Assembly: GCA_965242855.1 (NCBI GenBank)
Contig: OZ251509.1
Location: 126,869 to 190,868 of the forward strand
Direction of reading: 5' to 3'
DNA length: 64,000 bases
From: Alphaproteobacteria bacterium
GTDB taxonomy: Bacteria > Pseudomonadota > Alphaproteobacteria > UBA828
The notes below the pieces were generated by a model. The model was not told the DNA's origin. It did not search any database and saw only the letters and a program-made list of their open reading frames with translations. Both the position numbers and the translations under genes were made by a program. Below, piece by piece: positions 1,825 through 37,962 of this stretch. The first letter of the stretch is position 1, and every line of letters starts with the position of its first letter.

Positions 1825-2672
1825 GTCATGTACCCATAAAGATGGTATAGTTTCCCATCGGCATGGGGAAGTTGCGGAGGGAGGGAGTTTGGAATGGCAC
1901 GTTTTGATCTGACGGATGAGGAGTGGTCGGTGATCGCGCCGCTGCTTCCCAACAAGCCGCGCGGGGTGCCACGTGTCGATGATCGGCGGGTTCTGAACGG
2001 GATTTTTTACATTCTGCGCACGGGTTCTCCGTGGCGCGACCTGCCGGGGCGCTACGGCCCGTATACGACGGTGTACAACCGCTACAACCGCTGGGCCAAA
2101 CAGGGGGTGTGGCTGCGCGTCTTCGAGGCGTTGCGCGCCCAGGCGCCGGAGGCGCTTCATCTCATCGACACTTCGATCGTGCGCGCCCATCAACACGCGG
2201 CGGGCGGAAAAAAGGGGGCGCGGATCACGCCATCGGTCGTTCTCGTGGCGGACTGAGCACCAAGGTTCACGTCGTGGTCGATAGCCGCGGCCTGCCGGTC
2301 AAGTTCTTGCTCACCCCCGGTCAAGCCTCCGACAAGGGAAGCGTTGCCGACCTGCTGGCCGGCCTCGACCCGGCGCAGGACACGGTCTGCGACCGCAGCT
2401 ACGACGCCAGGGCGATCCGCGATCTGATCGCCAAGCATGGCTCCAGGCCCCATATCCCGACCCAGAAGAACCGCAAGGTCCGGTACAGCGTCGATCCCGC
2501 GCTCTATCGCCAACGCAATCTGGTCGAGCGGTTCTTCAACAAACTCAAACACTTCCGAGGCATCGCCACCCGCTACCACAAGCTCACCAGGAACTTCCTC
2601 GCCGCAATCGCTCTCGCCGCAATCCGTATCCATATCAAATATAATGAGTCCACGGCCTAGCCAAATCTTCTT
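1825..2672 (+). mobile_element. IS5-family insertion sequence, IS427 group (approx 0.85 kb); ends approximate
   Basis: Contains orfA/orfB transposase with A6G slippery site; flanked by CTAG tetranucleotides at 1821-1824 and about 2670-2673 (IS427-group elements target CTAG-like sites); imperfect terminal IRs (ctaggtcatgtacccat / rc ctaggccgtggactcat). Confidence 0.8.
1894..2660 (+). CDS. IS5-family (IS427-group) DDE transposase, orfA (1894-2256) fused to orfB (frame +2, to 2660) by programmed -1 ribosomal frameshift
   Basis: orfA MARFDLTDEEWSVIAPLLP…HTH; orfB …DDE_Tnp_1 C-terminal (…RNLVERFFNKLKHFRGIATRYHKL…); slippery heptamer gcggAAAAAAGgggg at about 2205-2215 in the overlap. Confidence 0.85.
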
Positions 2673-3062
2673 GAAGTGAGCGCCGGGGTTGCCAAGGCCG
2701 CCGATCGTGATATCCTGCAAGGGTTCGTCAAGGAGCGCGTGGCGGTGAGGGCCACGGTCTGCACGGACGATCCGGCGGCCTGCAAGGGGATGGCGGACAC
2801 GCGCCACGAGGCGGTCAACCATTCGGTTGGCGAATACGCTCGCGGCATGGCGCACACGAATGGAATGGAGTCGCTCTGGCCCATGTTCAAGCGCGCCTGC
2901 CACGGCACGTTCCATCACCTGTCCGGGAAACACCCGAACCACCATGCCCGAGAGTTCGTCGGGCGGCACAACGTCCGCAATCTCGATACCATCGCGCAAA
3001 TGTCCACACTGGCGCGGGGCATGGTGGGGAAGCGGCTGCAGTGCAGGGAGTTGGTGGCATGA
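2673..3062 (+). pseudogene. IS1595-family (ISXO2-like) transposase, C-terminal ~128 aa fragment; N-terminus missing
   Basis: …HTNGMESLWPMFKRACHGTFHHLSGKHPNHHAREFVGRHNVRNLDTIAQM… matches conserved C-terminus of IS1595/ISXO2-like DDE transposases; begins directly at the IS5 right end, with no room for the ~200 aa N-terminal part. Confidence 0.75.
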
Positions 3063-3772
3063 GCGACTCGACTCTCGACGAGATTCTTGAAGACGGTCGC
3101 AAGGAAAGCCCACAACAACGTTCGGGAAGTGGCGCACAATACAATCCCATTAGCAGCGTTTGGGAGGGAAGCGATGGGGAACTTCTCGAACAGATGCTGA
3201 GGTTTTATGCATCGATCCCACCGGACCCTATTCTGGACTCCACCTATAACACAGGGCGATTCTGGAAGAACTCAAACCGGCGTATCGTCTCAATGGACAT
3301 AGATCCAAAGTACAAGACGATGATCGTCGGTGACAATCGGGAAATGGTGGGCATTCCTACGTCTACTTTTGGAACCGTTGTTTATGATCCGCCTCACGTG
3401 GGACCGCAAGGACGCGACAAGAGCAGAAAGAGGTTTGATGAGGATTTCGGGGCGACGGTTGAGTGTGGCAAGAGCCAAGGATGGAGCCTCAGCTATCTGT
3501 ATCCTCCTTTCCTAAAGCAGGCGAAAAGAGTGTTGAAGCCTCGCGGTCTTCTGTTGGCGAAAATCACAGATATGGTGAACTGTCATAGATCGAAATGGGC
3601 GCACTGTGATTTCATGAAAATGGCCGAAGAATCCGGCTTCACCGTTTGTGATTTGATCGTCAAGATTCGAAGTGGACCGATGGTCTCAACGAAATGGAAA
3701 ACCGCCCATCATGCCAGAAAGCGACATTGTTTCTGGATCATTTGTCGCAACGGACGCAGCTGTGAGAGATGA
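3059..3772 (+). CDS. Putative DNA methyltransferase (small gamma-class N6A/N4C-type; motif IV DPPH)
   Basis: …ILDSTYNTGRFW… (weak motif I) about 50 aa before …TVVYDPPHVG… (D/N-PP-Y/H catalytic motif) and …FLKQAKRVLKPRGLLLAKITD… (typical RVLKpgG post-catalytic motif); lower GC than host; immediately upstream of a GIY-YIG nuclease gene. Start taken at MSDSTL (M7 of ORF 3041..3772). Confidence 0.55.
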   Translation: MSDSTLDEILEDGRKESPQQRSGSGAQYNPISSVWEGSDGELLEQMLRFYASIPPDPILDSTYNTGRFWKNSNRRIVSMDIDPKYKTMIVGDNREMVGIPTSTFGTVVYDPPHVGPQGRDKSRKRFDEDFGATVECGKSQGWSLSYLYPPFLKQAKRVLKPRGLLLAKITDMVNCHRSKWAHCDFMKMAEESGFTVCDLIVKIRSGPMVSTKWKTAHHARKRHCFWIICRNGRSCER

Positions 3773-3775
3773 TCT

Positions 3776-4255
3776 GTGCGGAGCTATGATCTGCTTAGCG
3801 TGGATGAGCTCGGGCGCAACGCAGCGCGGGCACTGATGGAGCATCCCCCGAACGATTTGCCGCCGAAAGAATCGTTTGGGGGAGGTGGCGTCTACACGCT
3901 GCACTACGTTGGCTCATTTTACGCTTATACTGGCATGAGCGATGAAGTGCCGATCTACGTTGGCAAGGCCGATCTGCCAGGAAAGCGTCAAGGGCGGACA
4001 AGGACGCGCCACCAGACCCCGGCGCTTTATCGTCGATTGGTGAAGCACGCCGAGTCGCTTGATAGCGCACAGAATCTGCACCTCCACGACTTTCGGTGCA
4101 GATGGCTGGTGCGGGACGCCGTTTGGATCGGTCTGACGGAACAGGTCTTGATCGCAGAATACAGCCCGCTTTGGAATGCCGCCGCCGACATAGCGGCCGG
4201 GATCGAGAAACATCGGGCAGGAAGAAATCGTCATGCGCAAAAAGGCGCTGGCTAG
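3776..4255 (+). CDS. Putative GIY-YIG family type II restriction endonuclease (Eco29kI/Hpy188I-like), 159 aa, GTG start
   Basis: GVYTLHY…(17 aa)…IYVGKA = GIY…YIG spacing; downstream Arg cluster (RQGRTRTRHQ), His91, Glu128, Asn134 in positions expected for GIY-YIG catalytic residues; 4-nt spacing after the MTase gene; stop codon overlaps the right TIR. Confidence 0.5.
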   Translation: MRSYDLLSVDELGRNAARALMEHPPNDLPPKESFGGGGVYTLHYVGSFYAYTGMSDEVPIYVGKADLPGKRQGRTRTRHQTPALYRRLVKHAESLDSAQNLHLHDFRCRWLVRDAVWIGLTEQVLIAEYSPLWNAAADIAAGIEKHRAGRNRHAQKGAG

Positions 4256-8152: not shown

Positions 8153-9991
8153 TCAACGCCGGCCTTCGCGGTGGGCGGCCAACGCCGCCTCCTTCTCCCG
8201 GTCCACCCACCAGGTGTCGGCGATGCCCAGGGCGTAGCGCGGCTTGACCGCCGGCCGGCCGAATTTGTCCCAATAGACGAGGTGATGCGTCCCCTTGAAC
8301 CATTGCGGGACGATGTAATGGCCCCAGAGCAGCACCCGGTCCAGGGCGCGCACGGCGGCGGTGAGTGTCGGCCGGTCCGTGGCGGCGACGATCTCGGCGA
8401 TGAGCGCGTCGACGACCGGATCCTCGATCCCCGACGAGTTGAGCGAGCCCGCGCGGTCTGCGGTGTCGGAGGCAAAATAGGCGTTGAGCTCCGCGCCGGG
8501 CGAGAGGCTGAGCACGAAGCGCCGGGTGGTGATGTCGAAATCGTGCTCCTTCAGGCGGTTCTCGTATTGCGGCCCGTCCACCAGCCGCAGCGTCGCCTCG
8601 ATGCCGACACGCTTCAGGTTGCGCGCGAAGGGCGCGATGACGCGCTCGAAGGTCGGCTCGAAATAGAGGAACTCGATCTCCATCGCCTCGCCCGTCTCGC
8701 GGTGGACGAGCCTGCCGTCGGCCAGCGCCCAGCCCGCTTCCGCGAACAGCGTCCGGGCGCTGCGCAGGTTGCGCCGGTTGTTGCCGGAACCGTCGGTGCG
8801 GGGCGGCGCGAAGGCTTTCGTGAAGACCTCCGCCGGCACGGCGCCGCGGTGGGGCTCCAGGAACGCCAATTCCGCCTCCGAGGGCAGGCCGCGCGCAGCC
8901 AGGTCCGAATTTTCGAAATAGCTCTTCATGCGTTCGTAGAGGCCGTAGAACAGGTTTTCGTTGAGCCATTCGAAGTCGAAGACGTAGGAGAGCGCCTCGC
9001 GCACCCGGCGATCCCGGAACTTCGGCAGGCGCGTGTTGATGAAGTAGGCCTGCACGCCGGACGGCGTGTTGTCGGGCAGGATTTCCCTGATCAGTCGGCC
9101 TTCCGCCACGGCCGGGATGTCGTAGGCGGTGGCCCAGGTCTTGGAGGTGAACTCCTCGTGGAAGTCGAATTCGCCCGCCTTCAGCGCCTCCACGATTACC
9201 GTCCGGTCGCGGTAGTAGTCGAAGCGGATTTCGTCGAAATTGTGACGCCCGGCGTTCACCGGCAGATGGGCGCCCCAATAGTCCGGGACCCGCTCGTAGA
9301 CGACGGCCCGGCCCGGGTCGACCCGGCCCACCCGATAGGGCCCGCTGCCGAGCGGCGGCTCCATGGTGGTCTCGCCGAAGGCGCGGCCTTCGTAATAGGC
9401 CTTCGAGAGGATCGGCATCCCGCCGATGATCAGCGGCAGCTTGCGGTTGCCGCGATCGCCCAGGCGGAAGACGACCGCGCGCGCGCCTTCCGCCTCCACG
9501 CCCTCCACCCCCGCCAGCAGGACGGCGTAGTTGGGGTGCCCCTCTTGCGTCAGGGTTTCGAAGGAGAACGCCACGTCGGCGGCGGTGACCGGCGTCCCGT
9601 CGTGCCAGCGGGCCTCGGGCCTGAGCGTGAAGCGGAGCCGGCTCCGGTCGGGCGCCAGTTCGACATGGGAGGCGACCAGCCCGTAGGCCGAATCCGGTTC
9701 GTCGGCCGCGCCTTCCAGCAGCGTTTCGAAGGGCAGGCCCGCGCCGGCCGCGCTCACGCCCTTGAGCGTGAACGGATTGAGCGTGTCGTAGGAATCGACG
9801 GCGGCCAGACGCAGCGTCCCGCCCTTCGGCGCGGCCGGCTCCGCATAGTCGAAATGGGTGAAGTCCGGCCCGTATTTCAGGTCGCCGAAAAGCGACAGCC
9901 CGTGCTTCGTCTGGGCCCCCGCCGCCCCCGCCGAAACGAGCGCGAGGCAGAACAGCAGCGCGGCCGCCGCGCGCGCGCCGAAGCTCGTCAT
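8153..9991 (-). CDS. yejA: Peptide ABC transporter periplasmic substrate-binding protein YejA (SBP family 5)
   Basis: About 612 aa with signal peptide MTSFGARAAAALLFCLALVSAGAAGA; start chosen at MTSF with GGAGG RBS; family 5 SBP length and composition. Confidence 0.8.
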   Translation of the reverse strand: MTSFGARAAAALLFCLALVSAGAAGAQTKHGLSLFGDLKYGPDFTHFDYAEPAAPKGGTLRLAAVDSYDTLNPFTLKGVSAAGAGLPFETLLEGAADEPDSAYGLVASHVELAPDRSRLRFTLRPEARWHDGTPVTAADVAFSFETLTQEGHPNYAVLLAGVEGVEAEGARAVVFRLGDRGNRKLPLIIGGMPILSKAYYEGRAFGETTMEPPLGSGPYRVGRVDPGRAVVYERVPDYWGAHLPVNAGRHNFDEIRFDYYRDRTVIVEALKAGEFDFHEEFTSKTWATAYDIPAVAEGRLIREILPDNTPSGVQAYFINTRLPKFRDRRVREALSYVFDFEWLNENLFYGLYERMKSYFENSDLAARGLPSEAELAFLEPHRGAVPAEVFTKAFAPPRTDGSGNNRRNLRSARTLFAEAGWALADGRLVHRETGEAMEIEFLYFEPTFERVIAPFARNLKRVGIEATLRLVDGPQYENRLKEHDFDITTRRFVLSLSPGAELNAYFASDTADRAGSLNSSGIEDPVVDALIAEIVAATDRPTLTAAVRALDRVLLWGHYIVPQWFKGTHHLVYWDKFGRPAVKPRYALGIADTWWVDREKEAALAAHREGRR

Positions 9992-10091
9992 GGGACCTCC
10001 GTTCGAACCGCCGCCGGACTGTAGCCGAATCCCGCCGCCCGCGGTAGACGCGGACTTCACAGGCCGGCGCGGGCGTCGTACCTTCGGCGGG

Positions 10092-14477: not shown

Positions 14478-15724
14478 CCGGCGGGCGTCCCCCGCAGCCC
14501 GTCGCCGGCCACGCCCGCGATGCGGACGCGCGCCACCGCCCCCGGCGCCCCCGCCGCGCGGTCGAGCGAAACCTTGGCGAAGCACTCGTCCCGCCCGAGC
14601 GCCGGCTTCTCCAGCAGCACCCGGCTTTCGCGCCCGATGCGGCCTTCAAGGAAGCGCCGGCGCGGCGCGGCGCCCGCCTCCCGCAGCCGGGCGGCGCGGG
14701 CGCGACGCTCGGCGGGGGGGACCTGCGGCATCCGCGCCGCCGGCGTGCCCGCGCGCGCCGAATAGGGGAAGACGTGGAGCCAGACCAGCCCGGCCTCCGC
14801 GACCAGCCGCCGCGTGTTCTCGAACATCGCCGGAGTCTCGGTCGGGAAGCCGGCGATCAGATCGGCGCCGAAGGCGATCTCCGGGCGCAGCGCGCGCAGA
14901 CGCCGGCAGAGGGCCAGCACGTCCGCCCGCCGGTGGCGCCGCTTCATGCGCTTGAGCACCAGGTCGTCGCCCGCCTGGACGCTCAGATGCAGATGCGGCA
15001 TCAGCCGCGGCTCCTCGGCGAAGAGCCGCTCCAGCGCCGGGTCCACCTCCACCGGGTCGATGGAGGAGAGCCGCAGTCGCTCCAGGGCGGGGACCGCCGC
15101 CAGCAGCCGCCGCGCCGTCTCGCCCAGGGAGGGCCGGCCCGGCAGGTCGCGCCCGTAATGGCCGAGATCGACTCCCGTCAGCACCGCCTCGCGGTAGCCG
15201 TTCTCCACCAGGGCGTGCAGCTGCCGGATGATCTGGCCCGGCGGCACGCTCCGGCTGGGGCCGCGGCCAAAGGGGATGACGCAGAAGGTGCAGCGATGGT
15301 CGCAGCCGTTCTGGACCTGCACGAAGGCGCGGGCGCGCCCCTCCGGACCGGCGACGGGATGGCCTGCGTTCTCCCGCGCCGCCATGATGTCGCCGACGGC
15401 GACGCGCGGCCCCGCCTCCGGCGCGAAGCGCGCGGCCTCCAGCTTCTCCCGGTTGCCGAGCACGCGGTCGACCTCGGGCATCGCGGCGTAGCGCGCCGGG
15501 TCGATCTGCGCGGCGCAGCCGGTGACGACGAGGGTGGCCTCCGGGTTGCGCCGCCGCGCCCGGCGGATGGCCTGGCGCGTTTGCCGCTCGGCCTCGGCGG
15601 TGACGGCGCAGCTGTTGACGATCACGGCGTCCGTCAGGCCGGCGGCGCGGGCGCGGGCGCGCACGATCTCCGACTCGCAGGCGTTGAGCCGGCAGCCCAG
15701 GGTGACGACCTCCGGTCCGCTCAT
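14474..15724 (-). CDS. mtaB: tRNA methylthiotransferase, MtaB/MiaB-like radical SAM
   Basis: MSGPEVVTLGCRLNACESE… (UPF0004 N-domain with 3 Cys), radical SAM core FVQVQNGCDHRCTFCVIP; the 783-aa ORF's first ~360 aa overlap dapF in another frame and are rejected; ATGA overlap with dapF stop. Confidence 0.8.
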   Translation of the reverse strand: MSGPEVVTLGCRLNACESEIVRARARAAGLTDAVIVNSCAVTAEAERQTRQAIRRARRRNPEATLVVTGCAAQIDPARYAAMPEVDRVLGNREKLEAARFAPEAGPRVAVGDIMAARENAGHPVAGPEGRARAFVQVQNGCDHRCTFCVIPFGRGPSRSVPPGQIIRQLHALVENGYREAVLTGVDLGHYGRDLPGRPSLGETARRLLAAVPALERLRLSSIDPVEVDPALERLFAEEPRLMPHLHLSVQAGDDLVLKRMKRRHRRADVLALCRRLRALRPEIAFGADLIAGFPTETPAMFENTRRLVAEAGLVWLHVFPYSARAGTPAARMPQVPPAERRARAARLREAGAAPRRRFLEGRIGRESRVLLEKPALGRDECFAKVSLDRAAGAPGAVARVRIAGVAGDGLRGTPAG

Positions 15725-16539
15725 GCCGGCAGCGTGCCCGTGAAGGCGAGGGTGGCGGCCCCCGTCATCTCGACATGGCCGTCGTCGCGCCAGCGCACGT
15801 CCAGCGTGCCGCCGTCCAGCGCCACGGCGACGGCGCGCCCCGTCAATCCGCGCCGGGCGGCGGCGACGGCGGCGGCGCAGGCGCCCGTGCCGCAGGCGCG
15901 GGTGACCCCGGCCCCGCGCTCCCAGACCCGGAGCCGCAGGCGGTCCCGGCCGACGCGCGCGGCGACGCCGATATTCGCGCGGTCGGGGAAGAGCGGATCG
16001 GTCTCCAGAGCGGGGCCGGCTTCTTCCAGCGGCACCGCGTCGGCGTCCTCCACGAAGAACACCGCGTGCGGATTGCCGACGTTGACGGCCACCGCGTCCG
16101 AGAGCGGCCCGGCCGCCACGCCCACATGCAGCGTATCCATGGCGCGGGCGAGCGGAATGGCGCGCCAGTCGAGCCGCGCGGCCCCCATGTCGACGCGCAC
16201 GGCGCCGTTCCCGCCTGCGCGGGCCACCAGCGGGCCGGCGGCGGTTTCCAGCACCACCCGGTCGCGGCCGCTTTCGTCCAGCAGCAGCCGGGCGGCGCAG
16301 CGGGTGCCGTTGCCGCAGGCCGCGACCTCGCCGCCATCGCGGTTCCAGATGCGGAGAAAGGCGTCCGCCCCGGCCCCCCGCGCCGGTTCCAGCGCGAGCA
16401 CCTGGTCGCAGCCCACGCCCGTGCGCCGGTCCGCGATGGCCCGCACCCGCGCGCGATCGAGCGCGATCCGCTCCCGCCGCCCGTCGAACACCACGAAGTC
16501 GTTCCCGAGCCCGTGCATCTTGAAAAACGCCACCCCCAT
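15721..16539 (-). CDS. dapF: Diaminopimelate epimerase
   Basis: FFKMHGLGNDFVVFD…; catalytic Cys in ACGNGTRC and TRACGTGACAA. Confidence 0.9.
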   Translation of the reverse strand: MGVAFFKMHGLGNDFVVFDGRRERIALDRARVRAIADRRTGVGCDQVLALEPARGAGADAFLRIWNRDGGEVAACGNGTRCAARLLLDESGRDRVVLETAAGPLVARAGGNGAVRVDMGAARLDWRAIPLARAMDTLHVGVAAGPLSDAVAVNVGNPHAVFFVEDADAVPLEEAGPALETDPLFPDRANIGVAARVGRDRLRLRVWERGAGVTRACGTGACAAAVAAARRGLTGRAVAVALDGGTLDVRWRDDGHVEMTGAATLAFTGTLPA

Positions 16540-16757
16540 CCCCCGGTTTATAGAGACCCCCCGCCCCCGCCGTCCACCGCCGCCGCGCGCCGCAACGTTC
16601 GGGCCGCCCTCGCCGCCGACGAGCGGAGCCAGCCTGTGGATCAGCCCTTCCGCGTCGTCGGCGAGAACGAGATCGAACAGGAAGTCCTGCTGCGATCCGG
16701 CTCGAAGCTTCGCGGTGCCGGGATCGTCGACAACGCGGACGAGGGGAGCCGGTCGTG

Positions 16758-17165
16758 CCTCGGTTTGAAATTTTCGAGGTTCGCCGCGCTATGTTGCAAA
16801 CCGAGACGCCGCCATCCCATCGCAAGGGACGACAGAATTTTTATCAGGATTCCTGGATTCCCGCTTTCGCGGGAATGACGGGGAGTAGATGCGGGAATGA
16901 CGGATCTTCGGCACCGGGCCTTGCCCCCTCGCGCCAATGGCCTTCATCGGGCCGCCATTCCCCCGCTTTCGCGGGGGCAGGCTCCGCAAGCGCGGGCCGT
17001 CATTCCCGCGAAAGCGGGAATCCATGTCGATCGATCCCGTCGGGAGCGCCTGGGTTTGACATTTTCAGGGTTTGCCGCGCCGCGAAGCGCACTATGCATA
17101 ATGCATAAATGGCGAACACAAACCCGCCCGGCACGCCATATTGCAAACCGAGACACTACCAGGGG
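16758..17165. repeat. Repeat cluster: two direct copies of a promoter-like module (ggtttgaMattttcRgg…tatRttgcaaaccgagac) flanking a set of palindromic REP-like hairpins (ttcccgctttcgcgggaa / ttcccgcgaaagcgggaa)
   Basis: Module A1 16762-16807, hairpins 16855-16881, 16889-16904, 16957-16980, 16998-17023, module A2 17053-17156 (with ~50-nt AT-richer insert). The same hairpin family recurs at 36213-36387. Confidence 0.6.
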
Positions 17166-17365: not shown

Positions 17366-18307
17366 ATGGCCGAAGGCGAGGGTACGGGCCGCACGGGCGA
17401 CCGGCTCAAGCAGCTGCGGGCCTTCTGCCACGCCGCGCGGCTGGAGAGCATGTCCAAGGCGGCCGAGCGGCTGGACATCACGCAGCCCGCCGTCTCCCAG
17501 CACATCCGGGCGCTGGAGCGCGAGTTCGCGACGACCTTCTTCGAGCGCCGCGGCCCGCGCATTGCGCTGACGCCGGCGGGCGCCGGCCTCTTCCGCCTCG
17601 CCATGCCGCTGGTGCAAGGCGTGGAGCGCCTGCCGGAGACCTTCGCCGCGCACGTCAACGACGAGGTCGCGGGCGAGGTGCGCGTGCTGGCGGGACTCAC
17701 CGCCGCCACCTTCCTGCTGCCCGACTATCTCAAGCGCTTCCGGGCGGCGCACGAAGGCGTGAAGGTGACGCTGCGGACGGGGGGGCTCGCGGACGGCCTC
17801 GGCCTGCTCCACGACCGCGAGGTGGATTTCGCGCTGGGGGGGATGGAGATCGTGCCGGAGCGGCTGGAGTTCCACCCCTTCCGCACCTGCCGTTACGTGC
17901 TCATCGCCCCGCCCGGCCACCCGCTGACGGAGGGCAGCAGGACGGCCGGGCCCCGGGACATCGCCTCCTGGCCTATCGTGATGCCGGCGCGGGGGACGTC
18001 CGCGCGCGAGGCGGGCGAGCTCGCGGCCCGGCATTTCGGCGTGGCGCTGAAGGTCGCCGTGGAGACCCGAGGCTGGAGCGTCATCAAGCAGCTGGTGGAG
18101 CGCGGCATCGGCATCGCCTTCGTGCCCGACATGTGCGTGGGAGAGAGCGACGCGGTGCGCACGGTGCCGATCGAGAAGCGCGTGGCGCAGGCCATCCGCC
18201 CCTTGAGCTACGGCGTTATTCTCTCCCGCCCCGAGTTCCTGCCCCTGGCCGCCCGCCGCCTGATCCAGACCATGATCCCCACCTTCCCCGGCCCTCCGGC
18301 ATTCTGA
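17366..18307 (+). CDS. LysR-family transcriptional regulator
   Basis: N-terminal wHTH LKQLRAFCHAARLESMSKAAERLDITQPAVSQHIRALE; ~310 aa with LysR substrate-binding domain. Confidence 0.85.
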   Translation: MAEGEGTGRTGDRLKQLRAFCHAARLESMSKAAERLDITQPAVSQHIRALEREFATTFFERRGPRIALTPAGAGLFRLAMPLVQGVERLPETFAAHVNDEVAGEVRVLAGLTAATFLLPDYLKRFRAAHEGVKVTLRTGGLADGLGLLHDREVDFALGGMEIVPERLEFHPFRTCRYVLIAPPGHPLTEGSRTAGPRDIASWPIVMPARGTSAREAGELAARHFGVALKVAVETRGWSVIKQLVERGIGIAFVPDMCVGESDAVRTVPIEKRVAQAIRPLSYGVILSRPEFLPLAARRLIQTMIPTFPGPPAF

Positions 18308-18411: not shown

Positions 18412-20439
18412 ATGGCGGCCTATCCGCGCCTTTTCTCCGAATGGAAAATCCGCGAGACGACGATCAGGAACCGGGTCGTCTTCCCCCCCACCTGCCCGAG
18501 CTGGGTCTCGGACCCGTGGAACGGGCTCTTCACCGACATGGCCACCGCCTATTACCGCGAGCGGGCGAAGGGCGGAGTCGGGCTCATCATCATCGGCGCG
18601 GCGCATGTCCACCCGAGCTCGATCATGGCGCCGCTGCTGATGCCGCAGCTCTTCGACGACCGCCAGATCGAACCGCTCTCGCGCATCGCCCGCGCGGTCC
18701 ACGCCGAAGGCTGCAAGCTCGCCATCCAGCTCTGGCACTCGGGGGTGCGCGGCTTCCCCACCTACAAGCAGGAGGCCTCCTACGACCCGGACGCCACCTG
18801 GTACACGCTTTCGCCGAGCCAGGTGCCGCTCGGCGAGTTCCCCGGCGCCTCGACGCCGAAGGAGCTGGACGAGGACGAGATCGAGGAGCTGCTGGCGGCC
18901 TACGGGGCGGCCGCCGCGCGCGCCCTGGCCGCGGGGCTGGACGGAGTCGAGCTGCATCTGAGCCACGGCTACCTGCCCTGGCAGTTCATCTCCCCCCTCT
19001 ACAACAAGCGCACCGACCGCTGGGGCGGTTCGCCGGAGAACCGCCTGCGCTTCCCCGTCGAGGCGCTGGCGCGGATGCGCGCGGCGGCGGGCGCGGAAAA
19101 ATTCGTCGGCTACCGCATCAACTCCACCTCCTTCTGGCCCGGCGACCTCGACATCGACGACGTGCGCACCATCGTGGCCGCGATCGAGCGCCGGGCGGAC
19201 GTGGATTACGTCAACGTCTCGGCGGGCGTCCACCACGCCTTCATCCACACGCCGATGGAATTCGAGGCCGGGTGGGAGCGCGGCTACGCCCGCAAGATTC
19301 GCGAGGTGTCGTCGAAGCCGGTGCTGCTGGTGGGCCGCATCACCACGCCGGACGTGGCCGAGCGCCTGCTGGAGGCGGGCGACGGCGACGCCATCTGCCT
19401 CGCCCGCCAGCTCTTCACCGACCCGTACTGGGCGAAGAAGGCGCAGGAGAACCGCGCCGACGACATCCGCTCCTGCGTCGCCGCCAATTTCTGCTGGAAG
19501 AGCGTGAGCCGGGGCGGGCGGGTGCAATGCATCTACAACCCGGCCGTGGGCCGCGAGGCGGCGTGGGGCGAGGGCACCCTCGACCGGACGGCGCGGCCGA
19601 AACGCATCCTGGTGATCGGCGGCGGCCCGGCGGGGCTGGAATATGCGCGCATCGCCGCCGCCCGCGGGCACGCGGTGACGCTCTACGAGGCGGAAGCCGA
19701 GACCGGCGGCCACGTGCGCGTGCAGTCCCTGCTGCCGAGCCGCGCCGAATACGGCGAGATCGGCCGCTGGCTCGCGGCGCAGGCGGAGAAGAACGGCGCG
19801 ACCATCGTCACCGGCGCGCCGGTGACGGAGGAGGACCTCGACCGGGCGCTGACGGCCGTGGCTCCCGACCACGTGGTGGTGGCCACCGGATCGCGGGTGG
19901 CGGTGGACGGCTTCCAGGGCTGGACGGGCGAGGCGCTGCCGGGCTGGGAGACGGGCAATTGCGTGGGCTGGGACGAGGTGGCGCTCGCGCGGGCGAAGCC
20001 GCGCGGCAAGGTCATGGTGCTGGACGACCTGTGCGACGTGGTGGCCCCGCTGACGGCCGTCGCCGCCAGGGAAGGCGGCGCAGACGCGGTGACCCTGGTC
20101 ACGCGCTGGCCGATGGTCGGCATGGAGACCATCCTCGACGTCTATCTCGACTGGATCCTGCCGAAGCTCTACCGCGCCGGCGTGGAGGTGTGCGTGGACC
20201 ACTTCGTGCGCCGCATCGCGGGCCGGGAGGTCACGCTCTACAACGTCCACCACGAGGAGGCGGAGCGCGTGCTGGAGGCGGACTGGATCGTCATGGCGAC
20301 GGGCCGGCGCTCGGAGAACGGCCTCGGCAAAGCGGTGGCCGCCCGCGGCCTCTCCGTCGAGACCATCGGCGACGCCACCGCCCCCCGCTCCGCCTACGAG
20401 GCGGTCTACGAGGGTCACCGCCAAGCCCGCAAAATCTGA
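18412..20439 (+). CDS. Old-yellow-enzyme-type FMN oxidoreductase fused to FAD/NAD(P)-binding domain (2,4-dienoyl-CoA reductase-like family)
   Basis: 675 aa; OYE TIM-barrel N-half (…HGYLPWQFISPLYNKRTDRWGGSPENR…), C-half Rossmann VIGGGPAGLEYA; only a partial Cys cluster (C-x5-C-x11-C). Confidence 0.75.
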   Translation: MAAYPRLFSEWKIRETTIRNRVVFPPTCPSWVSDPWNGLFTDMATAYYRERAKGGVGLIIIGAAHVHPSSIMAPLLMPQLFDDRQIEPLSRIARAVHAEGCKLAIQLWHSGVRGFPTYKQEASYDPDATWYTLSPSQVPLGEFPGASTPKELDEDEIEELLAAYGAAAARALAAGLDGVELHLSHGYLPWQFISPLYNKRTDRWGGSPENRLRFPVEALARMRAAAGAEKFVGYRINSTSFWPGDLDIDDVRTIVAAIERRADVDYVNVSAGVHHAFIHTPMEFEAGWERGYARKIREVSSKPVLLVGRITTPDVAERLLEAGDGDAICLARQLFTDPYWAKKAQENRADDIRSCVAANFCWKSVSRGGRVQCIYNPAVGREAAWGEGTLDRTARPKRILVIGGGPAGLEYARIAAARGHAVTLYEAEAETGGHVRVQSLLPSRAEYGEIGRWLAAQAEKNGATIVTGAPVTEEDLDRALTAVAPDHVVVATGSRVAVDGFQGWTGEALPGWETGNCVGWDEVALARAKPRGKVMVLDDLCDVVAPLTAVAAREGGADAVTLVTRWPMVGMETILDVYLDWILPKLYRAGVEVCVDHFVRRIAGREVTLYNVHHEEAERVLEADWIVMATGRRSENGLGKAVAARGLSVETIGDATAPRSAYEAVYEGHRQARKI

Positions 20440-34191: not shown

Positions 34192-36168
34192 CTACAGCGC
34201 CAGGGCGGCCCGGTGGCCGTCGTGGATCGCCGAGGCCGCATCGCGCGGCAACAGGCAATCGCCGATGCGGCGCACCGGGAATCCCGCCGCCTCCAGCGCG
34301 CCGGCGAGGCCGTCGCGAGCGATTCGCGGAGTGGCATAGGCCAGCAGGGCCACGTCCTCGACGGTGGTTTCGGCGCCGGTGAGCACGTGGCGGCAGGCGA
34401 CGCGGCCTCCCTTCCGCGCCACCGGCTCCGTCAGCCGCCGCACGTCGACCTCGAGCCGGGCCAGGCGCCGGTCCACGCCCAGGCGGGACATCAGGTTGAC
34501 GGCGCGGGCGATCTCGGCGGCAGGGGTCAGCAGCACGACGCGCGCGAAGCGCCGGGCCAGCAGGTCGACCGCCGCGTAACAGGCGGGAGTCTGGTCCATG
34601 TCGAGCAGCACGGCCGTGCCGGGCGCCGGCGGTGCGCCGGCGGCGTCCGCGTGGGCGAGGCTCTCGACGGCGCGCCGCAGGTCGACCGCCTCCACCTCCT
34701 CCGCCAGCGCCGGCGGCCGGCGCATCGCGGCGCCCGTCGCCAGCACCACCGCGTCCGGCGCGAAGGCCCGCAGCGAATCGACCGTGGCCGTTTCGCCCAG
34801 GCGGAAAACGACGCCCGCCTCGATCGCCCGTTCGTGTTGGAAGGCCGCCGTCCCCGCCACCTCGGCCCGGCCCGGCAGGCGCGCTTCGAGCCGCGCCGCG
34901 CCGCCCGGCTCCCCGCCCGCCGAGAAGACGGTCACCGCGTGGCCGCGCGCCGCCGCGGTCCAGGCCGCCTCCAGGCCCGCGAGGCCGGCGCCGACCACCG
35001 CCACCCGCCGCCGCGCCGTCGCCCGCGGCGGCCGCCAGCCCGCCTCGTCCGCGCCGGCCAGCACCGGGTTCTGGAAGCAGCGGATGGGCCGGCCGGCGTG
35101 GATCTCGCCCCAGCAGTAGTTGCAATAGGTGCAGCGGCGGATCGCGCCGGCGCGGCCGGTGCGCGTCTTGCGCGGCCAGTCGGCGTCGGAGATCAGCGCG
35201 CGGCTGAAGCCCACCAGGTCGCAGGCCCCGGCCGCCAGCGCCGCCGCCGCCGCCTCGGCCGATTCGATGCGGCCCAGCGCGATCGTCGGGAGCCCGCCGG
35301 CGGCTTCGCGCAGCCGCGCGTGCAGCGCGAGGAAGGGCCGGGGCGGGTAGTGCATGTCCGGCAGGTGCGAATCGAATTGAGGACCGAAGGCGCCCTGGCT
35401 GAAGCAGAGATAGTCGAGGACGCCGTCCGCGACGGCGGCGCGGGCGATGCGCGCGGCCTCGTCCGGGTCGATCCCGCCCGGCAGCTTCTCGTCGGCCGGG
35501 AGCTTGATGCCGACGACGAAGCCGGCGCCGCAGGCGGCGCGGACGGCGGCCAGCACCTCGCGCATGAAGCGGGTGCGGCCCGCGAAGCCGCCGCCGTAGC
35601 CGTCCGTCCGGTCGTTGCAGGCGGGCGAGAGGAACTGCGCGATGAGGTAGCCGTGGGCGCCGTGCAGCTCGACTCCGCCGAAGCCCGCGCGTTGCAGGCG
35701 CAGGGCGCTCTCGGCGTAGCCGGCGACGATGCCCGGGATTTCCATCTCGGCCAGCGGGCGGGCGGCGTTCCAGTAGAGCGCCTCCGGCCGCGCGGAGGCC
35801 CCCACCGGCACCGAATCGAGGCCCCAGAGCTGCTGGCGCCCGATATGGCCGAGCTGGCCTATCAGCAGGCAGCCCGCGCCTGCGACCGCCGCCGCCCAGC
35901 GCGCGAAGCCGTCGTCATTGGCCGCGTCGTGGGCGCTCACCAGAATCGGCGCGCCGCTGCTCGTCGGATGCACGTTGAGGAGCTCGCTCACGATCATCGC
36001 CGCCCCGCCCTCGGCGCGCGCCCGGTGGTAGGCGATCAGGCGATCCGTGACCATGCGCCCGCGCCCGAGGCCGGTCACGGTGGCGGTGTGGACGATGCGG
36101 TTGCGCAGCCGGCGGCGCCCCAGGGCGAGGGGGCTGAACAGCGTCTCGAACGCGGAGGCGGCCGCCAT
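34192..36168 (-). CDS. 2,4-dienoyl-CoA reductase-like OYE/FAD/NAD(P) oxidoreductase with [4Fe-4S] motif
   Basis: 658 aa; OYE barrel (…HGAHGYLIAQFLSPACNDRTDGYGG…), CTYCNYCWGEIHAGRPIRCFQNP (C-x2-C-x2-C-x11-C), Rossmann VVGAGLAGLEAA. Confidence 0.8.
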   Translation of the reverse strand: MAAASAFETLFSPLALGRRRLRNRIVHTATVTGLGRGRMVTDRLIAYHRARAEGGAAMIVSELLNVHPTSSGAPILVSAHDAANDDGFARWAAAVAGAGCLLIGQLGHIGRQQLWGLDSVPVGASARPEALYWNAARPLAEMEIPGIVAGYAESALRLQRAGFGGVELHGAHGYLIAQFLSPACNDRTDGYGGGFAGRTRFMREVLAAVRAACGAGFVVGIKLPADEKLPGGIDPDEAARIARAAVADGVLDYLCFSQGAFGPQFDSHLPDMHYPPRPFLALHARLREAAGGLPTIALGRIESAEAAAAALAAGACDLVGFSRALISDADWPRKTRTGRAGAIRRCTYCNYCWGEIHAGRPIRCFQNPVLAGADEAGWRPPRATARRRVAVVGAGLAGLEAAWTAAARGHAVTVFSAGGEPGGAARLEARLPGRAEVAGTAAFQHERAIEAGVVFRLGETATVDSLRAFAPDAVVLATGAAMRRPPALAEEVEAVDLRRAVESLAHADAAGAPPAPGTAVLLDMDQTPACYAAVDLLARRFARVVLLTPAAEIARAVNLMSRLGVDRRLARLEVDVRRLTEPVARKGGRVACRHVLTGAETTVEDVALLAYATPRIARDGLAGALEAAGFPVRRIGDCLLPRDAASAIHDGHRAALAL

Positions 36169-36212: not shown

Positions 36213-36420
36213 CCGCTTTCGCGGGAATGACGGGGCCCCGCCTCCGCCGTCGGGTTCGTCCTCGCGCCCCCTTCGAACCCGCGGCGTCGCGCCTCCCCCC
36301 ACCGCGCACCAATCGGGACGTTTCCCCCGCTTTCGCGGGAACAGGCTCCGCAGGCGCGGACCGTCATTTCCGCGAAAGTGGGAATCCATCTCCCTCGCTG
36401 CGCCATGTTGCAAACCGAGG
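36213..36420. repeat. Second locus of the palindromic REP-like repeat family plus partial promoter-like module
   Basis: ccgctttcgcgggaatgacgg (36213-36233), tttcccccgctttcgcgggaacagg (36321-36345), cgtcatttccgcgaaagtgggaatcc (36362-36387), catgttgcaaaccgagg (36404-36420); near-identical to units at 16855-17023. Confidence 0.6.
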
Positions 36421-36849
36421 CACTGCCCACACATGACGACAGGGGTAATATGGCGCGATGAAGACGTTCCTCGACATCCACGACGACCCGCGCACGGGCG
36501 GCGGCGCCGTCGAACCGGATGATCGGTGAAGCCGCCGGTTTCATGGGCTTCCTGCAACGCTTCGCGCGCCGCCCGCCTGTCGTGGGCGATGCCGTTCACG
36601 CCGCCCGCAACGCGGCGGTCTGCGTCGCGCATGGCGCCGAGGCGCTGCTCGCGCGGGACCGCGATTTCCCGTCGGGCGCGCGTTCGAGGCTGGCGGGCGC
36701 CTTGGGACCCGGCGCCCGTCAATCGCGCGCTGTGGGCGCTCCCTGGCGCGGCCCGGCCGCTTCGAGGCGGTGCGGACATTGCGCCGCGTGGGCGGGTGGC
36801 TTGACAATCGGCGCGCGCCGTTCAATCGAACCTTGAAGGGAACCCCGCG

Positions 36850-37782
36850 ATGAACCGCTGGCTTGCCTTGATCATGCTTTGCGGCGCCCTGGCGTTGCCG
36901 GCGCTTCCCGTTCACGCCGACGCGACGGGCGATTTGTTCGAGGCGGCGGAAAGCGGAACCGCTTCCGAAGTGAAGGCCGCGCTCGCTGCCGGCGCGGACC
37001 CCGGCGCGCGCGATAATATCGGCGAAACGCCGCTTCACGCGGCGGCGGGGAACAATGCCAACCCTTCCGTGATTACGGCGTTGATCGAAGGCGGTGCGGA
37101 CCCCGGCGCGCGTGGCAAATTCGGCTACACGCCGCTTCATGATGCGGCGCAAGCCAATTCCAACCCTTCCGTGATAGCGGCATTGATCGAAGGCGGCGCG
37201 GACCTCGGCGCGCGCATGGAAGACGGCGACATGCCACTTCACTTGGCGGCGACGTTCAATTCCAACCCTTCCGTGATAGCGGCGTTGATAGAAGCTGGTG
37301 CGAACCCCGGCGCGCGCAACGAAGACGGCGCAACGCCGCTTCACTTGGCGGCGGGGAACAGTGCTTTCGCCATCAAGGCGTTGATCGAAGGCGGTGCGGA
37401 CCCCGGCGCGCGTAACAAAAAGGGCGAAACGCCGCTTCATAAGGCGATGCGCACTCCCTACCTAATCGTCCGGTTCTTGATTGAGGAGTTGATCGAAGAA
37501 GGCATGTACCAAACCGAACTTTCCGTGTTCCTTTCCGGGGTAGCGGCGTTGATCGAAGCTGGTGCCGACCCAGACGCGCGCAACGAAGACGGCGCAACGC
37601 CGCTTCACTTGGCGGCGGCATACCATTCCAACCCTTCCGCGATTGAGGCGTTGATCAAGTACGGCGCGAACCCCGGCGCGCGTGATTACGACGGCTTCAC
37701 TCCCTTCGATTATGCGCAAGAGAACGACGCCTTGAAGGGAACCGAAGCCTACTGGCTATTGAACGAAGGCCGGTTCGAGTAG
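36850..37782 (+). CDS. Secreted ankyrin-repeat protein (about 7 ANK repeats, Sec signal peptide)
   Basis: MNRWLALIMLCGALALPALPVHA signal; repeated G-TPLH-AA…NPSVI-ALIE-GADPGAR units; nucleotide-level near-tandem repeats. Confidence 0.85.
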   Translation: MNRWLALIMLCGALALPALPVHADATGDLFEAAESGTASEVKAALAAGADPGARDNIGETPLHAAAGNNANPSVITALIEGGADPGARGKFGYTPLHDAAQANSNPSVIAALIEGGADLGARMEDGDMPLHLAATFNSNPSVIAALIEAGANPGARNEDGATPLHLAAGNSAFAIKALIEGGADPGARNKKGETPLHKAMRTPYLIVRFLIEELIEEGMYQTELSVFLSGVAALIEAGADPDARNEDGATPLHLAAAYHSNPSAIEALIKYGANPGARDYDGFTPFDYAQENDALKGTEAYWLLNEGRFE

Positions 37783-37962
37783 GGTGGCGTTCTCCGGCGG
37801 TCCTGGCGTGAACAGGGCTTCAAGGCACCCGGCCTGCGGTGCCGGTGCGGCCGCTTCGAGGCTGGCGGTGTGGACGTCGTTTCCGGAACTGCGGACGCGC
37901 GACCCGTTCGCGGCCGCATGACGGCGGTGCCGGGAGCCGGCGCGGCGGACGCGGGAGGGGGC

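Follow-up and report, generated by a model that had tools for sequence, protein, structure and literature searches.

We analysed a 64-kb stretch of bacterial DNA (the window; GC = 71%), in which two intergenic regions, locus A and locus B, contain short hairpin-forming repeats (Table 1). Locus A occupies an 826-bp spacer with the divergent genes dapF and lysR on either side, and locus B likewise lies between divergent genes, here those of a flavin oxidoreductase and an ankyrin-repeat protein. The gene order dapF-mtaB-ftsY suggests that the host is an alphaproteobacterium. The host is perhaps sponge-associated, a guess that draws on the 'PANK22' sample names of related metagenome contigs and on the secreted-type ankyrin gene. 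The ankyrin repeats account for the 102-nt tandem repeats at 36962-37719. Two-domain flavin oxidoreductase genes (Oxidored_FMN + Pyr_redox_2) adjoin both loci, at 18412-20439 near locus A and as the left neighbour of locus B, which is probably a coincidence because the two share only 32% identity. Upstream, the dapF frame continues without a stop into the variable spacer (16540-16788 in the window; 1432-2418 in the sibling contig L001), and the called lengths therefore differ (328 aa in L001 vs. 272 aa in the window and in the related contig L131); the true start looks like MHGLGNDF at 16519. Elsewhere in the window, positions 2031-4255 form a small mobile island, and sibling contigs share its IS1595 fragment together with a neighbouring gene of ~240 aa that corresponds to the methylase-like ORF.

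Table 1. Positions of the features discussed (window coordinates unless another sequence is named; NTS, Neisseria Transformation Sequence; M, inverted-repeat module).
Feature	Position	Strand	Remarks
IS5-family transposase fragment	2031-2660		within mobile island
IS1595 fragment	2676-3062		within mobile island
DNA methylase-like ORF	3041-3772		weak match; within mobile island
Eco29kI-type GIY-YIG restriction endonuclease	3776-4255		PF09517, E 5e-31
Diaminopimelate epimerase gene (dapF)	15721-16539	minus	Pfam DAP_epimerase, E 1.9e-57; left neighbour of locus A
Locus A variable segment	16599-17265		667 bp of the dapF-lysR spacer; whole composite inside
Module M1	about 16750-16815	plus	complete small copy, 65 nt; repeats D1, D3
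NTS copy a	16853-16880	minus	28/28 to NTS consensus; contains dRS3 palindrome ATTCCC-N8-GGGAAT
Half copy b	16891-16903	minus	13 nt, CCGTCATTCCCGC on minus strand
Degenerate NTS-like hairpin c	16952-16981	plus	CCGCCATT-CCCCCGC-TTTC-GCGGGGG-CAGG
NTS copy d	16998-17025	plus	27/28 to NTS consensus
Module M2	17041-17161	plus	same unit as M1, split by 56-nt insert
LysR-family regulator gene (lysR)	17366-18307	plus	right neighbour of locus A
Flavin oxidoreductase gene	34192-36168	minus	left neighbour of locus B
Locus B half copy a'	36221-36233	minus	GCGGGAATGACGG; left edge of insertion
Locus B ~205-bp block	~36223-36427		a', c', d', M3; approximate boundaries, to within a few bases
Locus B degenerate hairpin c'	36318-36345	plus	part of the ~205-bp block
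Locus B NTS copy d'	36362-36389	plus	25/28 to NTS consensus
Module M3	36395-36428	plus	right half only; TCGCTGCGCCATGTTGCAAACCGAGGCACTGCCC
Ankyrin-repeat gene	36850-37782	plus	right neighbour of locus B
Half-copy sites	L111 520-610, 1400-1490; L018 320-600; L082 80-160; L012 1900-1990; L076 3740-3820; window 16853-16903		5' half copies upstream of full NTS

Anatomy of the composite

The preliminary description reported a module at 16762-16807 that recurs, with an AT-rich insert, at 17053-17156 and brackets a block of hairpins, all of which holds: the two modules (M1 and M2) align as direct repeats (D1, 80%; D3, 79%), the hairpins lie between them, and the insert in M2 spans 56 nt (17081-17136), has an AT-rich centre and contains the palindrome ATGCATAATGCAT. 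In M1, the arms CTCGGTTTGAAA (16759-16770) and TTGCAAACCGAG (16794-16805) make up a 12-nt inverted repeat, with a predicted DNA fold of -13.6 kcal/mol (z -1.97), and the similarity between M copies reaches outward to GGTCGTGCC, over ~21 nt. The left part of M2 lies at 17049-17080 and its right part, CATATTGCAAACCGAGACACTACC, at 17137-17160. Matches to TTGCAAACCGAGAC with at most 2 mismatches number 4 in the window vs. 0.20 expected from shuffled sequence. Read as a dif/Xer site or as a Fur box, the AT-rich insert did not convincingly resemble the respective consensus.

The window contains three full and three partial hairpin copies, all of them intergenic and in two clusters. The four hairpins previously described at locus A are real but not equal, as two are perfect (a and d), one is a variant (c) and one is a half copy (b). 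Copies a and d form a perfect 28-nt inverted repeat (TGGATTCCCGCTTTCGCGGGAATGACGG at 16854-16881 and CCGTCATTCCCGCGAAAGCGGGAATCCA at 16997-17024) with a 115-nt spacer, and TTCCCGCGAAAGCGGGAA, at up to 3 mismatches, is matched 5 times in the window vs. 0.09 times expected after shuffling. As single-stranded DNA, copy d is predicted to form a hairpin with an 8-bp stem and a GAAA loop (-9.0 kcal/mol, z -3.26), and the predicted fold of the whole locus A unit reaches -65.9 kcal/mol (z -6.7). Half copy b sits 22 nt upstream of copy a (in the orientation of the NTS, see below), and hairpin c sits 46 nt upstream of copy d.

The hairpin family recurs ~19 kb away, at about 36213-36428, where it is followed by a partial module, as described before. 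The earlier statement that the partner units are near-identical is borne out for the right part, the 76-nt c-d unit (88% identity, locus A vs. locus B), but not for the composite as a whole, which is 72% identical and in which the left hairpin at locus B is a half copy. Aligned end to end, the two loci are colinear, in the order a or a', spacer, c, d, ~15 nt and GCCATRTTGCAAACCGAGRCACTRCC (the right half of M), and this colinearity indicates that one repeated composite comprises the hairpins together with the right half of M. Between the loci, the spacer separating the hairpins shows little conservation, and 97 nt of the locus A composite, made up of the left part of M plus the AT-rich insert, are missing at locus B. 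Both stem changes in copy d' are C-to-T changes that leave G:T pairs.

The GC content of the composite (16810-17140) is 50-65%, taken in steps of 60 nt, vs. the average of 71% for the whole window, which fits DNA that is constrained by a sequence-specific recognition motif or DNA that was gained recently. The recurring peptides IPAFAGMTG and RESGNP, noted earlier, are found in the ORF translations, and a protein database search with an ORF spanning the composite returned no matches.

Identity of the hairpins and their distribution in other genomes

A full-text search with the 20-nt palindrome pointed to work on Neisseria and, through it, to the Neisseria Transformation Sequence (NTS), the 28-nt CGTCATTCCCGCGMAVGCGGGAATCYRG (Chenal et al., Nat Commun 2025; PMC11893778). 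Within the NTS lies the older dRS3 repeat, ATTCCC-N8-GGGAAT, and the NTS itself is one of the Ssn-related motifs (SRM), which follow the pattern HGTCWYN(0-2)YYVSBRHN(0-5)WNVSBRGN(0-2)RNCYNB, looser than the NTS (PMC11893778). Genes of the Ssn family encode single-domain GIY-YIG proteins of the cd10448 type and often have the motif on either side. [quoted passage not shown] Binding of single-stranded DNA and upstream cutting by Ssn are known only for the Neisseria and Wolbachia enzymes, and transposition of NTS/SRM clusters is put forward only as a hypothesis (PMC11893778).

Under the search rule of Chenal et al. (at most 1 mismatch to CGTCATTCCCGCGMAVGCGGGAATCYRG; PMC11893778), copies a (0 mismatches) and d (1 mismatch) count as NTS, and copy d' (3 mismatches) does not. 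The window has two matches to the dRS3 palindrome, and the non-palindromic flanks that orient the motif (CGTCA on the 5' side and C after the palindrome) are the same in the window copies as in the consensus. The 5' flank of hairpin c, which can also be written TCCCCCGC-TTTC-GCGGGGG, equals the NTS 5' flank at 10/11 positions. Both locus A copies, a and d, match the SRM pattern; two further SRM matches in the window (14109 and 40741) look like chance, the pattern being loose. Judged by sequence, it is close to certain that the hairpins are NTS/SRM sequences, a DNA repeat already published in 2025, such that the exact Neisseria NTS is present in an uncultured bacterium with 71% GC. Their earlier designation as REP-type hairpins in a composite repeat was right in kind, the repeated extragenic palindrome family being NTS/SRM. 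The preliminary description had also allowed for an explanation by a known family in Rfam or ISfinder; a known family does account for the motif, as a published DNA repeat and not via either of these two resources.

The window copies share with the NTS/SRM-Ssn system the 28-nt sequence (28/28, 27/28 and 25/28 positions), the oriented flanks, the predicted hairpins in single-stranded DNA, and, as far as the window shows, the intergenic and clustered placement. They differ from it in that there is no ssn gene within the 64 kb (best tblastn E value for an Ssn homolog, 0.33), the copy number looks low, the host has a GC content of 71%, the hairpins are fused to the lineage-specific module M, and the full pair is head-to-head, an arrangement that is rare elsewhere. 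The sole GIY-YIG protein of the window is the Eco29kI-type restriction enzyme of the mobile island. With the Neisseria intergenic mosaic elements (NIMEs), which are built around dRS3, the loci have in common the ATTCCC-N8-GGGAAT palindrome, hairpins that bracket other short repeat units in variable intergenic DNA, and a unit (a+b) that is 84.7% identical over 59 nt to N. gonorrhoeae chromosomes. In this comparison, M would be analogous to the RS units between the dRS3 repeats of Neisseria. In contrast to the Neisseria elements, M has no detected similarity in Neisseria records, and no filamentous-phage integration was seen at the window loci.

The exact 25-nt core of the motif, GTCATTCCCGCGAAAGCGGGAATCC, was found in at least 120 stretches from many phyla in a species-representative genome collection. 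The record titles among the matches listed include, from the proteobacteria, Alpha-, Beta-, Gamma- and Deltaproteobacteria and a Rickettsia endosymbiont, and, from other groups, Dehalococcoidia and other Chloroflexota, candidate-phyla-radiation bacteria, Planctomycetes, Acidobacteria, Nitrospirae and Omnitrophota. Among the 149 copies in the matches listed, position -1 is C or T in 96% and position +25 is A in 92%, preferences that agree with the published NTS and with the window copies. In four of the 120 matches listed (L047, L077, L078 and L103), a gene for a GIY-YIG protein of 95-102 aa (Pfam PF01541, E 9e-17) lies within ~250 nt of the hairpins, and the L047 protein has Y13, Y24 and E71 at exactly the spacing of the mutated residues Y6, Y17 and E64 of SsnA. 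This association of motif and nuclease in other genomes independently reproduces the published NTS-Ssn link. The exact core also occurs in 95 stretches of viral or prophage contigs (IMG/VR, L138-L232), of which two carry an Ssn-like GIY-YIG gene (L157, 2950-3377, where the gene is placed between hairpins, and L199, 10059-10325). Phages could thus be a vehicle of the spread of NTS across phyla, prophage calls being such that they may include host flanks.

Half copies of the 5' part of the NTS (CGTCATTCCCGC plus 8-9 nt) precede full NTS on the same strand, with 8/146 upstream vs. 1 downstream. There are one or two half copies per full NTS, most commonly ~20-21 nt upstream, and among the matches listed such upstream half copies occur at seven loci from several phyla (Table 1). 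The layout of a half copy followed by a full copy is seen in Dehalococcoidia, Omnitrophota, Povalibacter, Burkholderiales and the Rickettsia endosymbiont, and that of a+b also in N. gonorrhoeae. Upstream half copies are not described in Chenal et al. 2025 (PMC11893778); their directional pattern could hint at how NTS repeats spread. When NTS form close pairs (<1 kb), 30/51 of the pairs are tail-to-tail with a spacing of 42-120 nt (L007-L126, 120 loci listed), which resembles REPIN doublets. Head-to-head pairs are rare (4/51), and the locus A pair (minus, then plus) is of that type.

A BLAST search of the 120 NTS-bearing genome loci listed gave only chance matches of 14-18 nt to module M; a search of a metagenome collection with GCYATRTTKCAAACCGRGRCAY gave a single match, which we attribute to chance because it lies inside a coding region of a low-GC contig; and in a plasmid collection, searched in distant mode, the match was confined to the NTS part. 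Across these listed loci and the metagenome and plasmid searches, no link between M and the Ssn system was found in any other genome. In the collections searched, M thus appears to be an inverted-repeat module restricted to the lineage of the window, and our preferred reading is that of a spacer or end module, specific to this lineage, that belongs to the mosaic and was probably co-mobilised with it.

Probable gain of the composite among related strains

Contigs of related strains were recovered via identical or near-identical proteins. At locus A, the variable segment of the spacer is replaced by 214 bp of unrelated sequence in the strains with ~97% identical flanks (L001 and L130), and by 290 bp in L131-L133 (flanks 95% and 87% identical). 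No NTS was found in any of these contigs, nor anywhere in ~100 kb of related contigs; the NTS family in this lineage may be sparse or decaying. In L131, a lone site that resembles the right half of M, CCATGTTTCAAACCGGGACATTGCC, lies at 1926-1960 (likewise in L132 and L133), where it adjoins a TATACT box that precedes the lysR start by ~45 nt; these strains carry no NTS.

At locus B, the sibling L136 (97% identical flanks) has GCAACCGCCGCCGTTTCCTTTCC joined directly to CATGCGCGACGACAGGGG, with the ~205-bp block missing. The more distant L137 is likewise without the block, and therefore an insertion in the lineage of the window is the simpler reading for locus B. The left edge of the insertion lies inside a hairpin, of which only a half copy is present, and does not coincide with the position at which Ssn is known to cut. 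Neither locus showed a target-site duplication, the junctions of locus B included. The ankyrin gene block (36673-37874) is also missing from L136 and L137, in which only about 280-570 bp separate the oxidoreductase gene from the GMC-oxidoreductase gene. Since the siblings lack the ankyrin block too, the locus B spacer is a general hot spot for change.

The composite entered both intergenic regions after the split from the strains with ~97% identical flanks. The two colinear copies, missing from sibling strains, indicate that the composite is, or recently was, mobile. Because locus B is a clean insertion, it also follows that NTS clusters can be acquired in blocks that include other sequence. 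Such a strain-level gain, in which an NTS block arrives joined to non-NTS sequence, along with the directional pattern of half copies, adds modestly to what was known of the family.

Interpretation of the composite and alternative readings

We favour, with a probability of roughly 70%, the reading that the loci hold NTS/SRM repeats in a recently gained intergenic mosaic that acts as a DNA substrate and not as a promoter or an RNA gene. The NTS is an oriented 28-nt motif with the dRS3 palindromic core, which in other bacteria forms a hairpin in single-stranded DNA that Ssn binds and cuts. In the composite, an NTS on the minus strand with its upstream half copy is followed by a variable spacer, a degenerate hairpin, an NTS on the plus strand and module M, a mosaic layout that resembles the NIMEs of Neisseria and the BIMEs of enterobacteria. 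The composite would function as DNA, on which a hairpin-specific single-strand nuclease and recombination would act. A putative resident Ssn, which we infer to exist in this organism, would act on the window copies, and its action on the composite may underlie the plasticity of both spacers. The composite is best annotated or masked as NTS/SRM, rather than as a promoter or a small RNA.

A stronger version, that the composite is a non-autonomous mobile element moved via a single-stranded DNA intermediate by an Ssn encoded elsewhere, is possible, though we hold it to be unlikely. The clean ~205-bp insertion, the 5' half copies and the breakpoint inside a hairpin would then be footprints of the process, and M would be a lineage-specific end or cargo. 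If true, this would provide natural evidence that NTS/SRM clusters transpose, and a demonstration of such mobility would extend the biological role of the Ssn family beyond transformation in Neisseria.

We also consider it unlikely that the segment 16751-17160 is a MITE, with M as terminal inverted repeats recognised by a DDE transposase encoded elsewhere and with the NTS hairpins as passengers. Over 21 nt, the outer arms GGTCGTGCCTCGGTTTGAAAT and ATTGCAAACCGAGACACTACC show 86% complementarity; a pair of arms is present in M1 as well as in M2, sibling strains do not have the block, and at locus B the NTS block was accompanied by the right half of M. Nevertheless, copy B is without the left end, neither locus has a target-site duplication, no copy of M was found beyond the lineage (120 genome loci listed, metagenome and plasmid collections), and the IS5 and IS1595 fragments of the mobile island (2031-3062) have ends unrelated to M. 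MITEs such as the Correia elements are likewise short, non-coding, strain-variable, bounded by inverted repeats and located in promoter regions; the composite differs from them in that it has no target-site duplication and no cognate IS, one copy misses an end, and its -35-like hexamers are without workable promoter spacing. Of the earlier comparison to a MITE/REP element, what stands is the REP-like kind and the recent mobility, whereas a classical MITE is not supported, given the missing left terminal repeat of copy B and the lack of a target-site duplication.

Very unlikely, in our estimate, is a regulatory role for the M modules, be it as sigma-70 promoters that face outward or inward or as operators for the adjacent LysR-type regulator. 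M does contain the -35-like hexamers TTGAAA, TTGACA and TTGCAA as well as TATGTT, both loci lie between divergent genes, and the lone site in L131-L133 is placed just upstream of TATACT and ~45 nt before lysR. However, TTGAAA (16765-16770) and TATGTT (16790-16795) are 19 nt apart in M1, instead of the 17 nt reported earlier, and 75 nt apart in M2. Scans of both loci gave 0 promoter sites and 0 terminator sites. The spacer of 19 nt (vs. a criterion of 16-18 nt) and the negative promoter scan mean that the sigma-70 reading fails, and with it the earlier suggestion of an element that carries its own promoter. We also reject the LysR operator, because M sites are missing altogether from strains with a 99% identical LysR; moreover, the conserved ~100 bp upstream of lysR, which include TATACT, lie outside the composite. 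A sigma-54 reading of M (GGCACG-N5-TTGC) was likewise discarded, as GG and GC are 11 nt apart (10 nt in the sigma-54 consensus) and the GG varies in the other copies.

The possibility that the composite encodes a family of small structured RNAs, raised in the preliminary description, is very improbable. The locus A unit has the strong predicted fold given above (-65.9 kcal/mol, z -6.7), and both stem changes in d' keep pairs that are G:U-compatible, which says little, since any C-to-T change opposite a G yields a wobble pair. At the gathering threshold, Rfam gave no match anywhere in the window, and scans of both spacers under permissive settings reached at best 23 bits vs. thresholds of at least 160, so that no family comes near its gathering score. 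Further points against an RNA gene are that conservation is poor across the spacer that separates the hairpins, that the hairpin occurs in both orientations, with no conserved flanking transcript across phyla, and that SsnA acts on the hairpin only as single-stranded DNA, not on its RNA form (PMC11893778).

Equally improbable are classical REP/BIME elements moved by RAYT, an IS200/IS605-like Y1 transposase: the extragenic palindromes, arranged in inverted pairs or doublets within mosaics, do look like those of REPINs and BIMEs, and in both systems the repeats are suspected to be spread by a nuclease whose single-copy gene they flank, but the conserved 5' tail is CGTCA here and not the REP-typical GTAG, and the gene that accompanies the hairpin in other genomes, here as in PMC11893778, encodes a GIY-YIG nuclease and not an HUH Y1 transposase, with transposition by Ssn only hypothetical. 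As tail and partner enzyme both differ, we do not regard the hairpins as REP/RAYT elements.

The surroundings of the lysR homologs in other contigs show additional features. In L135, from a 3.67-Mb contig of a more distant relative (LysR 69% identical), a different family of hairpins, of the CCCCCTNGCAGGGGG type, is stacked upstream of lysR at 9800-10000. Giant genes lie beside the lysR homolog in L129 (1-9919 and 12132-20660) and L135 (1-9612), both from related contigs of 3.5-3.7 Mb, and the called products of these genes in the two contigs have 8,705, 12,870 and 11,047 residues.
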